From: Eledone cirrhosa
Taxonomy: Eukaryota
DNA: 64,000 nt
Assembly: GCA_964016885.1 (NCBI GenBank)
Contig: OZ024742.1
Coordinates: forward strand, 86,800,001-86,864,000
Direction of reading: 5' to 3'
A program made the position numbers and the translations under genes. This document shows, piece after piece, positions 21,481-62,322 of this stretch. The notes under the pieces were generated by a model that was given only the letters and a program-made list of their open reading frames with translations, searched no databases and had not been told where the DNA came from. The first letter of the stretch is position 1. Each line of letters opens with the position of its first letter.

Positions 21481-23823
<2,343 letters not shown>

Positions 23824-26828: not shown

Positions 26829-26868
26829 CCGAGCTGAGGATCCACTAAGTTGAAACAATTGTTCTAGG
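26829..26868 (+). ncRNA. Minimal hammerhead ribozyme (Penelope pLTR type)
   Basis: CCGAG-CUGAGGA-UCCACUAAGUU-GAAA-CAAUUG-UU-CUAGG, with palindromic stem III and weak stem II. Same family as 61981-62118. Confidence 0.6.
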
Positions 26869-26967
26869 TATGGTGAACTAACTGTTATGTAACCATTTAT
26901 ATATATATATATATATGAGAGACGTAAAATAAGAAAATTATAAAATTAACTTACTTACTAAAATTTC

Positions 26968-27050
26968 ACTCCCAACTAATTAGTTTCTGAAAGGGAATAA
27001 ACATACTTTCCGAAGAAGTGTACAGAGAAGCCTTTCCTCATCAGGGAAGT
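26968..27050 (-). ncRNA. Type I hammerhead ribozyme, array 1 copy 1
   Basis: Minus strand reads ACUUCC-CUGAUGA-G-GAAAGG...C(UUCG)G hairpin...CCUUUC-A-GAAA-CUAAUUAG-UU-GGGAGU. Stem I is 6 bp with one G-U pair. Confidence 0.82.
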
Positions 27051-27488
27051 ATATTCTCAGCTAAGTTTCCAGGCAATAGGTGGACACTGGGAACTTATAC
27101 AAAAATAATTTAGTGGATAGAAAAAAGCAAAGCGTGGACTAAATTCCTAGCCATTGAGAAAATCACTGCCTACTGCGTCGGTGGCAAATTCAAAAGAACC
27201 AATCACGTGACATCGAGGTCAATCAGTGGAAAGTGGTTTGTTAAGAAGACAGCAGCCTGACTGTTACCATAGCAGCAGTCTTGGCCAATTTTGCTCGACA
27301 AATAATTTGGAGATAATTATAAAGAATTAGTATATCTAGTAACATATATATACATACAGATGCATACTTATGCTAGCAAATATATAGGTTTTGTCTTAGT
27401 AACTTTGTGGTTCAATGCATGGGGTTGCAGAACAATAATATGAGAGACGTAAAATAAGAAAATTATAAAATTAACTTACTAAAATTTC

Positions 27489-27571
27489 ACTCCCAACTAA
27501 TTAGTTTCTGAAAGGGAATAAATATACTTTCCGAAGAAGTGTACAGAGAAGCCTTTCCTCATCAGGCAAGA
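27489..27571 (-). ncRNA. Type I hammerhead ribozyme, array 1 copy 2 (stem I weakened)
   Basis: Core, stem II and stem III match copy 1, but the 5' strand of stem I is UCUUGC, giving two mismatches against GGGAGU. Confidence 0.7.
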
Positions 27572-28492
27572 CTATTCTCAGCTAAGTTTCCAGGCAATAG
27601 GTGGACACTGGGAACTTATACAAAAATAATTTAGTGGATAGAAAAAAGCAAAGCGTGGACTAAATTCCTAGCCATTGAGAAAATCACTGCCTACTGCGTC
27701 GGTGGCAAATTCAAAAGAATCAATAACGTGACATCGAGGTCAATCAGTGGAAAGTGGTTTGTTAAGAAGACAGCAGCCTGACTGTTACCATAGCAGCAGT
27801 CTTGGCCAATTTTGCTCGACAAATAATTCGGAGATAATTATAAATAATTAGTATATCTAGTAACATATATATACACACAGATGCATACTTATGCTAGCAA
27901 ATATATAGGTTTTGTCTTAGTAACTTTATATATATATATATAAATGGTTACACAACCGTTCAATGGACGAAGAAAATCTTGTGATCTCTGTGTTACGGAA
28001 GCATATTACATAACTCGATCACGACCTCTACTGATTAACGATAGAACGGAGGTAACCATTAGCTGTGAACATCGAAAAGCTAATTCCTTCGCCAATAGAA
28101 TTGTTGACCCAACTTAGTCATGTAGCCCCATTTTTACTTGTAGCTAATAAGTTAAATTGCTATGAAAAACTCGATAATTATAAGTTACCTCCCCTATAAG
28201 TTGTCTCTCAATTAAAACATTTAAAAACTAGCACTTAAATATAAACACTCACAATCCCTAATCTCTCGAGAAGTTACTTCCCCTGAAACCACCCTCTAAT
28301 TAGTAAGGTAAATACGCCATTTGGCAGCCATCTTGTTACCCATATGCAGATCTCACACAATGCAACCTGGACAGATGAATACTGCTTGATTATGGCTGAG
28401 AAATGCTGCAACCAAGACACCATAGTAAAAACCAATATATGGAATATTATATTATGTAACATTATCCCATTATTTTAATTTATATTCCTTTG

Positions 28493-56781: not shown

Positions 56782-56823
<42 letters not shown>

Positions 56824-56890
56824 CGTAAAATAAGAAAATATCTTTTAAAAAAATTTTTAAAAAATTTTTTACTTACTTACTTAAATTTTC

Positions 56891-56972
56891 ACTCCAACTA
56901 ATTAGTTTCTGCAATGGGATAAAGACAGTTACATAATCCAACTGTCGAGAATTCATTGCGTCATCAGGGAGT
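56891..56972 (-). ncRNA. Type I hammerhead ribozyme, array 2 copy 1
   Basis: Minus strand reads ACUCC-CUGAUGA-C-GCAAUG...GACAGUU(loop)AACUGUC...CAUUGC-A-GAAA-CUAAUUAG-UU-GGAGU. Core is intact, stem I is ACUCC/GGAGU, stem III is palindromic, cleavage triplet is GUU. Confidence 0.85.
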
Positions 56973-57444
56973 CTATTCTCAGCTGAGCCTCCAGGCAATG
57001 CGCGGACACTGGCGGCTCATATAAAAATAATAATTCGGTAGAAAGAACAGCTAGGCGAGGACTGGATTCTATGTACTGAAATTCTCACTGCTTCCAGTCA
57101 AATGGCCGATTCTAAAGAATCAATCACGTGACATAGAGGCCAGTTAGAAGGAATGGGATGGTAAGATGACTGACGCCTACTAACACCCCCAAAAAAATTT
57201 TGAAGTGGTTTTGGCAGGTTTGCTCGACAAATCAGTGATTTGGAGATAAATATAGATAATTTAATATATCAACTAACTTAGGCGCACAGATGTACGTCCA
57301 TGCCAGCAAATACACAGGTTATGTCATAGTACCTAGGTGGTTCAATGCAGGAGGGTGCAGAACAATAATATAAAAGACGTAAAATAAGAAAATATCTTTT
57401 AAAAAAATTTTTTAAAAATTTTTTACTTACTTACTTAAATTTTC

Positions 57445-57526
57445 ACTCCAACTAATTAGTTTCTGCAATGGGATAAAGACAGTTACATAATCCAACTGTC
57501 GAGAATTCATTGCGTCATCAGGGAGT
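57445..57526 (-). ncRNA. Type I hammerhead ribozyme, array 2 copy 2
   Basis: Same sequence and fold as 56891-56972. Confidence 0.85.
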
Positions 57527-57997
57527 CTATTCTCAGCTGAGCCTCCAGGCAATGCGCGGACACTGGCGGCTCATATAAAAATAATAATTCGGTAGAAAGA
57601 ACAGCTAGGCGAGGACTGGATTCTATGTACTGAAATTCTCACTGCTTCCAGTCAAATGGCCGATTCTAAAGAATCAATCACGTGACATAGAGGCCAGTTA
57701 GAAGGAATGGGATGGTAAGATGACTGACGCCTACTAACACCCAAAAAAAATTTTGAAGTGGTTTTGGCAGGTTTGCTCGACAAATCAGTGATTTGGAGAT
57801 AAATATAGATAATTTAATATATCAACTAACATAGGCGCACAGATGTACGTCCATGCCAGCAAATACACAGGTTATGTCATAGTACCTAGGTGGTTCAATG
57901 CAGGAGGGTGCAGAACAATAATATAAAAGACGTAAAATAAGAAAATATCTTTTAAAAACATTTTAAAAAAATTGTTTACTTACTTACTTAAATTTTC

Positions 57998-58079
57998 ACT
58001 CCAACTAATTAGTTTCTGCAATGGGATAAAGACAGTTACATAATCTAACTGTCGAGAATTCATTGCGTCATCAGGGAGT
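57998..58079 (-). ncRNA. Type I hammerhead ribozyme, array 2 copy 3
   Basis: Same fold, with one substitution in the stem II terminal loop. Confidence 0.85.
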
Positions 58080-58551
58080 CTATTCTCAGCTGAGCCTCCA
58101 GGCAATGCGCGGACACTGGCGGCTCATATAAAAATAATAATTCGGTAGAAAGAACAGCTAGGCGAGGACTGGATTCTATGTACTGAAATTCTCACTGCTT
58201 CCAGTCAAATGGCCGATTCTAAAGAATCAATCACGTGACATAGAGGCCAGTTAGAAGGAATGGGATGGTAAGATGACTGACGCCTACTAACACCCCAAAA
58301 AAAATGTTGAAGTGGTTTTGGCAGGTTTGCTCGACAAATCAGTGATTTGGAGATAAATATAGATAATTTAATATATCAACTAACATAGGCGCACAGATGT
58401 ACGTCCATGCCAGCAAATACACAGGTTATGTCATAGTACCTAGGTGGTTCAATGCAGGAGGGTGCAGAACAATAATATAAAAGACGTAAAATAAGAAAAT
58501 ATCTTTTAAAAAAATTTTAAAAAAATTTTTTACTTACTTACTTAAATTTTC

Positions 58552-58590
<39 letters not shown>

Positions 58591-58907: not shown

Positions 58908-58936
<29 letters not shown>

Positions 58937-58939
<3 letters not shown>

Positions 58940-59312
58940 TAATAAAAGGAATTCTAAATTTGTCTGATTAACTCGTTTTATTTACAATCCTTTAAAATTA
59001 TAATGATATTATAATGAAATAGTATGCTAAAATATTAAACGTTAATTGAACTTTCATGCTTTCGTAATCTTCTGGTTTATATTCAGTCGTCACAGTCAAG
59101 TTTGCAATTTTCCACCACTGAATATGAACTTGGAGATTGCAAAAGCATGAGAGTACTTGTTCAATTAACATTTAATATTCTACCATACTATTTCATTATA
59201 ATATCATTATAATTTTAAAAGATTGTAAATAAAACGAGTTAATCAGACAAAGTTGGAATTCTTTTTATTAATATAATTTTCTATACACAATCATACAAAC
59301 CCGCGTATATTT
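58937..59312. repeat. Fold-back (inverted duplication) of the 28762-28992 family; each arm has a decayed hammerhead
   Basis: Arms are about 58937-59085 and 59118-59273. Cores are CAGAAGA (minus strand) and UUGGAGA (plus strand). Confidence 0.75.
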
Positions 59313-59371
59313 ATTTACACACACACACACACGCCCCCCCCCCCCCCATATATATATATATATATATATAT

Positions 59372-61880
59372 AGTAAACAATTGAACGGGAACAAAACAGA
59401 GAGGTTGTACGAACAAAGGTCTATTAGTTTCACGCTCTTGAGAGTGGGGTGGTGGTGGGGAACGATGTTTCAGGCATAAGCCCTTATTCAGGTAAAAAGT
59501 GTGTGGGACGAGAGTTCCAAGGGTGTGTGGGGGAGTGGTGGAGAGACATATAGAAAAAAGGGGGTGAGAGGAAACGTTAGAAATGAAATTAAATATAACA
59601 GCATAATAAAAATAAAAATAAACACGAAGTAAAACAGGTGGTGCAAGGGTGTGGGGCGTGTAGGGGTGGTGGCGGGTGGAGTGGGGAGAGGGAGGCGGGG
59701 TGTCTGAGCGGGGAGGGCTGAAGGTGGTGTGTGTGTGTAGATGTACGTGTGTGTATGTGAAAGTAAGAGTTGAGGGGAAGAACGGGGTTGCATGTTCAGG
59801 AAGAGGTGTGTGTGGTGTGGGGTGTAGGTCGGAATGTGTGTGCGTGTGTGGGTGGGGAGGGGTCACAGGGGTGGTGGGAGAGGATTCCGGAGTCTGAGTG
59901 TGTAAATATGTGGTGGTACGCACGTGTTTGTGTGGTGTTTATGCCTGTTGTGGATGTAGGTGGCGTTTGGGAAAAAGAAATGTTTGAGTGTATGTCAGTG
60001 GGTGAGTCCTTAAGTTAGTTCCGTAGAGGATGTGGTGGAATGCTGGGTAATATCCTTGGGATGTGGTGGATTCTAGGGATCGATGTTCAATATGTGTAAT
60101 CCGTGGTTGGTCGGAAGAGGGGAGATGTGGGGTGCGCGCGCAACAGGAAGTGGTCAGAGGGTCAAGGCAGGAGGAGGGTTGTGTGTCTGTGTGTGCGGGG
60201 AGGTGGTCAGAGATAGGGTCATAGCAGCAGTCGGGTAGAATTATAAGTGAAGAAAGTCGGTATGTCAGTGTGTGCGGAGGTGCGTTGGACAGGGGAGAGG
60301 ATGGGTAGGTGCGAAATTTGGAGTGTGGGGGGGGGTGTATTAGTAGAGGTGTTAGTGGGATGTGTGTGTGTTTGAGAAAGGGTGTGGGTGTGCGGGGAGA
60401 GAAGGGTGTGGAGACCGGTGGAGGGAGTGTAGTGTACTGGTGTGTGTGTGCATGTTTGGATGAGTGTGTGTGTGGTGAAGAGTGTGTTAGAGGGTGTTAG
60501 TATACTGTAGGTGGGGAAAGGGTTGAATGCGGGTGTGAGTGGGGGTCAGTGGTGGTAGGTGTGTAGAGTGGGTGGGGTAAGAGGGTCTGTGTTTTCGTGT
60601 GCGTAGGGTTGGGGGGGTGTTAGTTATGTTAGTTGCGTGTGGAGTGGGTGGTGTAAGTGGGTGTGTGTGTTCGTGTGCGTGGGGTCGGGGGGTGTTACTG
60701 ATGTTAGTTGCGGGGTGGTGGGATGGATGTGTGGGGGTGAGGGTTAGTGGTGGTAGTAGGGTGTGTGTTTAGTGTGAGCGCGTGTATATATGTACCGGTG
60801 GGTGTGAGCGTGTGATAAGGGGAGCGGGGGAGAAGAAGGGAGGGATGTTATTATGTTAGTTGCGGAAGGGTGGTCGGGTGTGGGATGGAAATGTTAGTAT
60901 TGTTAGTTGTGGGATGGGCGGTGAAAAGGAGGGGTGTGTTAGTGGTGTTAGTGGGGGATATGTGTCGTGGGAGGGGGACGGTTGAAGGCTAAAGGAATAA
61001 GGGTGGGGAGTTCAGGCCGGCGGGAGTGTGGGTCTGTAGGGTGAAGATGGTTCGTTGTTCGACCCTGAGGAGAGCGGCTGGTGTTCCGTGGCATTGGAGT
61101 AGGCCACAGACTGTGAGGTGGTGTGCGGAATGTCCAGGGGCGCCAAAATGGCGGGCGATGGGGGAACTACCACCGAGACGAATATCTCGGAGGTGTTCAG
61201 TAAACCGGTCCGTGTTCAGTAAACCGTGTTTAGCGAAGTCCGTAGAATAGGTTGGAGGAGGTGCAGCGGAAGGCATGCCGGACAAAGTGAGAGTGGCCGT
61301 TGGGACCCTGGAAGGTGGTGGTGTTGGTGATGCGGGGACAGGTGTTGCAGCGAGGCCTGGAACAGGGAAGGGAACCGGGGGGCGTGGGGGGAGGGAGCTG
61401 TGGACGAGAAGGGTGCGGAGATTGCGTGCGCATTTGAAGGAGGGGAGTGGTGGGGCTGGAAAGATGTGGGAGGTGGAGGGGTCGGACTGGAGGCGTCGGA
61501 AGAGGCGGAGGATGGTGCGGTGGAGGGGTATGATGGAGGGGTGCTAGGTGATGGGGAATGGGAGACGGTGGGTGGGTGTGCGGTGGCGCGGGGTGAGGGT
61601 GGTGGAGGGGTGGAGAGCACGGGCCCGGGTGAGAGCAGTGTGGACGAGAGAGAGGGGGGGGCCTCTGCAGATGAAATGGCTGATTGGGAAAGGGCCTGGG
61701 ACTCAAAGTCAGCATCTCGGCTACAGAGGTGGGGGATCCTGAGGAGTTGGGAGTAGGGAATAGAGTGTTTAGTGTGTGTCGGGTGGGAAGAGGTGAAGTC
61801 GAGGTAGGAGTGGGAAGAGGTGGGTTTGAAGAAGGCGGAGGTGACGAGAGAGTGGTGGGAGGGGTCGAAGGCGACGGAGA
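59372..61880 (-). mobile_element. 5'-truncated Penelope-like element (RT C-terminus, GIY-YIG endonuclease, long CA-rich 3' region)
   Basis: FFKPTSSHSYLDFTSSHPTHTKHSIPYSQLLR, CSRPRCNTCP, FRCTSSNLFY and DRFTEHLRDIR..SPIARHF..EQRTIFTLQTHTPAGLN (60989-61880, frameshifted, YIG motif deleted). A hammerhead-like CUGAAUA-AGGGC UUAU GCCU-GAAA lies at 59457-59497. Confidence 0.88.
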
Positions 61881-61980
61881 TGTATATATATATATATATA
61901 TATAAATAGTGGTAGAACACTGGAAGGTAATATCCGTAGTGGTAGAGCACTCAGTCCGTGGGACAAGTTAGGTAGAAGTG

Positions 61981-62118
61981 GTTACACAACAGTTAGTTCA
62001 CCATACCGAGAAATATTGTTTCACATTAACTGATCCTCAGCACGTAATGCATTACAAGCTGATGATCCGCAAAGGTAATACAATTGTTCTCGGTGTGGTG
62101 AACTAACTGTTGTGTAAC
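61981..62118. repeat. Fold-back element with two back-to-back minimal hammerhead motifs
   Basis: Inverted arms GTTACACAACAGTTAGTTCACCA / TGGTGAACTAACTGTTGTGTAAC. Minus strand has CUGAGGA..GAAA at 62006-62045; plus strand has CUGAUGA..CAAUUG-UU-CUCGG at 62054-62093 with GAAA mutated. Central palindrome is GTAATGCATTAC. Confidence 0.7.
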
Positions 62119-62322
62119 TAATTCTCTCGCTCTATATATATATATAGATGTGAGAAAAACCTCCAACTCAACTCTACTTTTGAAAAGCAGAAGAATTGCG
62201 AAACCGGTAAAGAAACCAAATAAATATATATATATATTTTAAAATAAGACTCCAGTTGCATTTTCGATTTCATCTTTTTGTCTTTATACGTTCACTCAGT
62301 TAGGACACCTCGGTTACTTTCT

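Follow-up and report, generated by a model that had tools for sequence, protein, structure and literature searches.

Insertion ends of a non-LTR retrozyme family as a possible genomic record of hammerhead self-cleavage

Background

Metazoan non-LTR retrozymes are described as head-to-tail units bearing a type I hammerhead ribozyme, for which mobilisation by Penelope elements has been proposed (available parts of PMC7229834 and 10.64898/2026.07.22.740005). The repeat discussed here, array 2 of a 64,000-nt stretch (the window) of an AT-rich animal genome of 3.0 Gb, is a protein-free non-LTR retrozyme of this known kind. It has a GC content under 50% and a type I hammerhead in each unit, and shares with the elements described in those parts the absence of ORF and LTR, the low GC and a palindromic stem III, whereas the long stem II extension of its family is unlike them. 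Its 553-nt unit lies above the 150-450 nt given in PMC7229834 and within the 51-972 nt of 10.64898/2026.07.22.740005. The link to Penelope is made in the available parts of both sources through shared ribozymes, co-occurrence and homology, and in the array 2 family through the structure of the insertion ends, of which no mapping was found in those parts.

Penelope elements themselves carry hammerheads in their pseudo-LTRs, for which in vivo evidence is said to be lacking and the function to be unclear (available parts of PMC4209133 and 10.1101/2021.04.23.441226). According to the same parts, a small palindromic helix III and an unpaired base after A9 are common to these ribozymes and that of the array 2 family, as are partial tandems, an adjacent inverted 5'-truncated copy and a bias towards microsatellites to Penelope elements and this family, which differs from Penelope-like elements in having no ORF. 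The anole Penelope-like element PAc (Poseidon) displays two internal reverse transcriptase (RT) start sites and an optional tail in vitro (PMC11167929). The array 2 family apparently shares with PAc the cutting and extension of both DNA strands, AT-rich targets and an uncut RNA as the main template, with a tail of 122 nt as opposed to 30-40 nt (PMC11167929). Unlike in PAc, both start sites match the target (TATAT), and they are strictly paired in the inverted insertions, whereas PAc showed no strand difference (PMC11167929). For PAc no RNA-seq reads were found at the cut and cleavage was not needed, whereas a minority of genomic ends in the array 2 family lie at the cut, a footprint that merits a bench test in view of that report (PMC11167929).

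A genomic trace of ribozyme activity has been described for the R2 retrotransposon, in which 5' junctions reflect the self-cleavage site of an HDV-like 5' ribozyme (available part of PMC3774820). Untemplated bases on run-off and joining by microhomology are shared with R2, but its ribozyme class and RT are different, and its cut forms the full-length 5' end, whereas most passes in the array 2 family cross the cut (same part of PMC3774820). A literature search covering few subscription journals and no supplements turned up no study in which the insertion ends of retrozymes or Penelope elements were mapped onto a hammerhead cut, and no strict pairing of two RT start sites.

Array 2 and its boundaries

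Unit positions are counted from the predicted hammerhead cut, +1 being the first base after it; the features are collected in Table 1.

Table 1. Coordinates of the retrozyme arrays and their parts in the window (slashes mark the predicted cut)
Feature	Position	Strand	Remark
Retrozyme array 2, 3.1 head-to-tail units of 553 nt	56814..58551	-	unit +6 to +82
Array 2 5' boundary, unit +6	58547..58551	-	five bases past predicted cut
Array 2 3' junction, unit +82	56814..56840	-	first of two fixed 3' ends
(TA)n target, 3' side of array 2	56783..56818	.	
(TA)n target, 5' side of array 2	58552..58572	.	
122-nt tail between fixed 3' ends +82 and +204	57799..57921	-	middle unit of array 2
Type I hammerhead, copy 1	57998..58079	-	predicted cut 58003/58002 (GUU/GGAGU)
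Type I hammerhead, copy 2	57445..57526	-	predicted cut 57450/57449
Type I hammerhead, copy 3	56891..56972	-	predicted cut 56896/56895
Array 1, related subfamily, ~70% identity to array 2	26913..27927	-	in (TA)n
Array 1 hammerheads, two	27490-27565, 26969-27044	-	

The original prediction placed the 5' end of array 2 five nucleotides from the predicted cut, and this is borne out: on the minus strand the array starts at 58551 with GAAAATTTAAG, directly after the (TA)n run at 58552-58572, and lacks the five bases that form the 3' strand of stem I. The boundary is sharp because the preceding base is A where the unit has T. The GGAGU said to start the predicted product on the minus strand is likewise present in the three internal units, which read GUU/GGAGU-GAAAAUUUAAG, and their three predicted cut sites were copied through with no scar. 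The units differ from one another by 4-6 substitutions, mostly within homopolymers. At its 3' end (unit +82) the array closes in TATAT, matching the (TA)n target, and it nowhere ends at +204. Array 1 had been noted as ending elsewhere, and its 5' end does lie near +116; yet its 3' end, at the equivalent of +82, is common to both arrays.

As one event the boundary of array 2 is weak evidence, because in a 553-nt unit an end has a 2-4% chance of falling within ~10 nt of any one site chosen. Taken alone, the +6 end is ambiguous, since it could equally have arisen by run-off from a cut, by stalling of RT at the stem I base or by trimming at microhomology; +6 is also the point where RT would first meet stem I.

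Hammerhead fold

The unit carries a type I hammerhead fold, located at the end of each unit, that is predicted to be self-cleaving. It is comprised of stem I (ACUCC/GGAGU), the core CUGAUGA, stem II (GCAAUG/CAUUGC) with an 8-bp extension, GAAA, a palindromic stem III and the triplet GUU, a weak triplet among hammerheads. The core reads CUGAUGA in 409 of 411 intact copies, which were gathered by a pattern that required a hammerhead core; these copies retain the type I order and bear GUU, GUA or GUC as the triplet, with position 17 being U, A or C and never G. Among 13 hand-picked variants, 90% of the cells in the stems are paired, as against 34-44% in slid controls, and 9 of 22 pairs show two-sided change, a covariation signal in which stem III is invariant and the share of stem I depends partly on the alignment of array 1.

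An unpaired base precedes the G-C pair at the G10.1-C11.1 position on each side of the core. On the 5' side, after A9, such a base is usual in metazoan and Penelope-type hammerheads, and no description of one on the 3' side was found in the available part of the same source (PMC4209133). No hammerhead model of Rfam matched in either gathering or E-value mode. The lowest-energy fold of the monomer is inactive (-24.3 kcal/mol, versus -20.1 for the active fold), whereas two unit copies are predicted to pair through the palindrome, as is described for those metazoan hammerheads that act as dimers (available part of PMC4209133).

Fixed 3' ends and paired arms

The 553-nt repeat is inserted at more than 1000 places in the host genome, where a 28-nt ribozyme core has 1846 matches and exact junction matches number 1143 for +82 and 545 for +204. 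Its copies are dispersed, with fixed 3' and variable 5' ends, as expected of a retrozyme spread through RNA. Both fixed 3' ends, the presumed start sites of RT, finish in TATAT against (TA)n, and the presence of (TA)n on both sides of the insertions masks any target-site duplication longer than 4 bp.

Arms were sampled through 100 of the +82 junctions and 93 of 100 +204 junctions among the matches listed, together with their partner arms; five arms of a divergent family and one censored arm were dropped, leaving 253. Head-to-head pairs account for 179 of these arms. A +82 arm is joined to a +204 arm in 86 pairs, no +82 arm has another as its partner, a single +204 arm has a +204 partner, and six arms have a partner that is unclassed. 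Median divergence is 0.7% between partner arms and 3.1% for arms of other loci, with the partner being the closest arm in just 15 of 47 pairs. The structural marks of a Penelope-type insertion are present here, namely two 3' ends with a tail, an inverted 5'-truncated partner and a microsatellite target, and the retrozyme likely moved into (TA)n by means of a Penelope-like RT.

Among internal unit junctions, 372 of 381 are exact and none bears an indel. Template jumping between cut monomers, considered as a source of the tandems, is therefore unsupported, as all 381 are scar-free. A satellite of at least 70 kb, built of 541-nt units of a related subfamily, is found at G000:C28:8.91-8.98 Mb (L353, L354).

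Distribution of 5' ends

The original prediction held that the boundaries of this family, plotted within the unit, should not scatter at random, and both the 253 sampled arms and the genome-wide joins display a non-random distribution with a sharp edge at -1/+1. For the sampled arms, 5' ends were taken from BLAST and counted per base at risk; a core-based sample (60 loci) and a DNA search, each length-biased, were excluded from this hazard test save for those arms that also matched the 3' patterns. The zone +1..+56 holds 86 of the 253 ends, 48 of them placed imprecisely by BLAST within a variable A/T tract, and the other 167 lie elsewhere. The ending hazard is 4.4 per 1000 nt in this zone and 1.4 elsewhere, a 3.2-fold difference (p about 1e-15), and the excess persists when one arm is taken per locus (59/166), in simple insertions (27/74), for +204 arms alone and past the first 300 nt. 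Within the zone the rate per 1000 nt is 6.1 in +1..+12, where ~78% of ends are in excess of background, 3.5 in +13..+25 and 4.2 in +26..+56, as compared with 1.3 in -13..-1, where two of the five ends fall at -1. Four other AT-rich bins have a mean of 1.3, one reaching 2.6 (+411..+432), and a perfect 12-nt A/T palindrome just upstream of the cut ends at the background rate. Overall, 88 of 387 passes end in +1..+56 and 77% cross the cut site; this crossing, together with the exact internal junctions, indicates that the main template is an uncut multimer or a seamless circle.

Base resolution was obtained from genome-wide pattern lists of joins and flanked ends, read by hand. Symmetric head-to-head joins were kept at 33 of 36 loci (one unrelated and two duplicates dropped), giving 66 ends. 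Downstream of the cut, 4 lie at +6, 3 at +5, 1 at +4, 8 at +3, 5 at +2 and 16 at +1; upstream, 12 lie at -1, 5 at -2, 1 at -3, 0 at -4, 3 at -5, 1 at -6 and 7 beyond. The scissile bond (-1/+1) thus holds 28 of the 66. Both ends are at -1/+1 in 9 of the 33 loci, three of which are blunt +1/+1 joins, although the ends of one join are non-independent and, if joins are assumed to be always symmetric, 9/33 gives only p=0.086. Some joins at the cut show single untemplated-looking A bases. Fifteen symmetric loci were read on both arms: in ten a +1..+82 arm and a +1..+204 arm make up the whole insert, which lacks a ribozyme core, as would be expected if two primers shared an RNA that has a single 5' end, and in five at least one of the arms is longer by a unit.

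Ends flanked by TA, among which only runs ending in T are visible, were kept in 48 of 54 cases (four of another family and two duplicates dropped). They fall 24 in -2..+6, 12 in -3..-20, including 7 at -18..-20 at the base of stem II, and 12 at +7, a count inflated by an A run. A control window, +447..+472, contains 17 such ends in 26 nt with no peak (one duplicate of 18 dropped). A search for non-T at -1 gave 84 matches; the first 30 listed comprise 15 junctions at +1 and 15 intact GUA/GUC variants, which extrapolates to roughly 40 junctions at +1.

Template and mechanism

Since 5' ends pile up at the predicted cut, a minority of templates in this family probably self-cleaved, with a minority of cDNAs likely running off the ribozyme-cut RNA. 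The best surviving competitor retains real cleavage: the RNA would be cut and then ligated to a circle, with RT stopping at the ligation junction or at a point of re-cleavage. Circles have been demonstrated for other retrozymes (available part of PMC7229834), and would suit the scar-free internal junctions, arrays reaching ~10 units and two arrays whose 5 and 6 units are identical outside masked tracts. The units of arrays L240, L003 and L078 differ among themselves, however; a satellite such as that of ~70 kb could possibly supply multimeric RNA instead, and a linear 5' end most simply accounts for both arms ending together at the first pass. A stop on a circle is an unlikely, if serious, source of the pile-up; linear and circular templates are inseparable from DNA and may coexist.

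Distinctly less probable is a stall of RT at the folded, uncut ribozyme, whether at an extended stem I or at the three-way junction, with cleavage not needed. An extended stem I (~+1..+17) is predicted and would be the first structure met by RT, array 2 is one of many insertions with an end in +4..+7, at the stem I base, the small cluster at the base of stem II also fits, and cleavage was not needed by the anole element in vitro (PMC11167929). A stall is nonetheless at odds with a mode at the scissile bond, since symmetric-join ends are far more numerous at +1 and -1 than at +4 and +5, and with the blunt +1/+1 joins and single A bases; moreover, the stronger stem II with its 8-bp extension yields merely 1.5-2.0 ends per 1000 nt.

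A transcription start that coincides with the ribozyme, at the sequence TTAGTT (A at -4), which is presumed here to be Inr-like, is a highly improbable cause. There are 16 junctions at -4 genome-wide, ~3 times a rough background of 5, but they are outnumbered by the extrapolated +1 junctions, only 1 of the 16 has the preceding G that a copied cap would leave, and -4 is empty in the symmetric joins. For a start near +465 no sign was found either, as ends show no peak in +447..+472. The junctions at -4 and the ends at the base of stem II imply, therefore, that stalls or microhomology also shape the end profile. The least credible account, disfavoured for the family though plausible for the array 2 locus alone, gives +1 no special standing and explains the boundary by chance together with A/T microhomology, either between arms or with (TA)n: +6..+56 is rich in A/T and in part palindromic, in 17 of the 86 pairs the arms meet at unit positions no more than 15 nt apart and +411..+432 is mildly raised, but the peak sits in the G-rich GGAGT, and the 12-nt A/T palindrome and other AT-rich bins are at background.

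Under run-off from self-cleaved RNA, a Penelope-like enzyme would nick both (TA)n strands, each target strand would prime at one of the two internal sites (+82, +204) of one RNA, and the cDNAs would extend towards the RNA 5' end. Most passes would cross an uncut or seamlessly ligated cut site, whereas ~15% above background would stop since the RNA ends at the cut, and at joining the run-off cDNAs would either acquire one untemplated base or be shortened by as much as ~55 nt. Partial self-cleavage would probably proceed via dimeric folding. On this basis the genome may well preserve a nucleotide-exact fossil record of germ-line hammerhead self-cleavage, with insertion of the retrozyme following a Penelope-type course with two primers, whereby each target strand starts synthesis from a fixed site of its own on a shared RNA and the two cDNAs can run off the same cut end. 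For array 2 itself, the proposal that its template ended at a ribozyme-cut terminus holds insofar as the 5' ends of the family pile up at or just downstream of the cut, and is not established for this locus; its +6 end falls in the +1..+12 bin, and a trimmed run-off product of cut RNA is a slightly favoured account of it.

If correct, the mapping of insertion ends would serve as a general in vivo activity assay for the hammerheads of retrozymes and Penelope elements, including minimal hammerheads that barely cut in vitro. The DNA alone suggests that most templates are read through while a measurable minority ends at the cut, and the paired +82/+204 arms are structural evidence for the use of a Penelope-type reaction by a retrozyme. 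The test requires an assembly only and is repeatable in any genome rich in such elements.

Neighbouring and related elements

GIY-YIG and RT fragments with hammerheads of their own are found at neighbouring (TA)n runs, and no autonomous partner sharing the 553-nt unit was detected by tblastn, ORF and hammerhead scans of 310 loci. A GIY-YIG-linked element with a minimal hammerhead, intact in L161 and L207, agrees with the cut-end footprint, though less cleanly. It has 73 symmetric joins, 50 of which were among the matches listed (three unreadable and one duplicate dropped). Hand reading of these identified at least 15 loci with an end at -1/+1 without long microhomology, among them a blunt +1/+1 join and a join that has a 2-nt spacer; a further 6 loci are compatible, and ~21 ends among the same listed matches fall at -3 or farther out, many of them at a palindrome. 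In some joins of this element (e.g. G000:C1:314337920) a short copy of its own downstream sequence follows the arm that ends at +1, as if the cDNA end had folded back and primed itself.

The 3' end of the same element occurs in the window as a head-to-head pair at 58935-59313, 82-88% like L161 and L207, which lies in simple repeats and is built like the head-to-head pairs of the retrozyme, with a minimal hammerhead in each arm and a tail on one arm only. A broken, C-rich Penelope-like fragment, 67-83% like L225, lies on the minus strand at 60989-62125, next to an inverted repeat whose minimal hammerhead-like motif (62019-62040) is related to a motif at 26834-26855, beside array 1. The fragment itself, GIY-YIG-like by eye, had no match in Pfam. 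A 436-aa fragment of a non-LTR reverse transcriptase (RVT_1, weak zf-RVT; 22283-23590, minus strand) shows no link to the array. At 57640-57700 (unit +315..+345), sequences taken here to be an E-box (GTCACGTGA) and a YY1-like motif (GGCCATTT) could form a possible internal promoter; both recur in the 3' regions of nearby GIY-YIG elements.

A second tandem family, with a 318-nt unit (L322:1500-1820) and 150 genome matches, bears a hammerhead that appears to have a U3-A8 core variant and has two 3' ends ~31 nt apart. It has in common with the 553-nt family only a 15-nt motif just 3' of the ribozyme, which could be a signal for the RT; considered as an ORF-bearing partner by virtue of this 15-mer, it proved, in the four loci examined, to be another retrozyme. 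Near (TA)n runs in loci L005-L310, no fewer than eight additional hammerhead-like families are found repeatedly.
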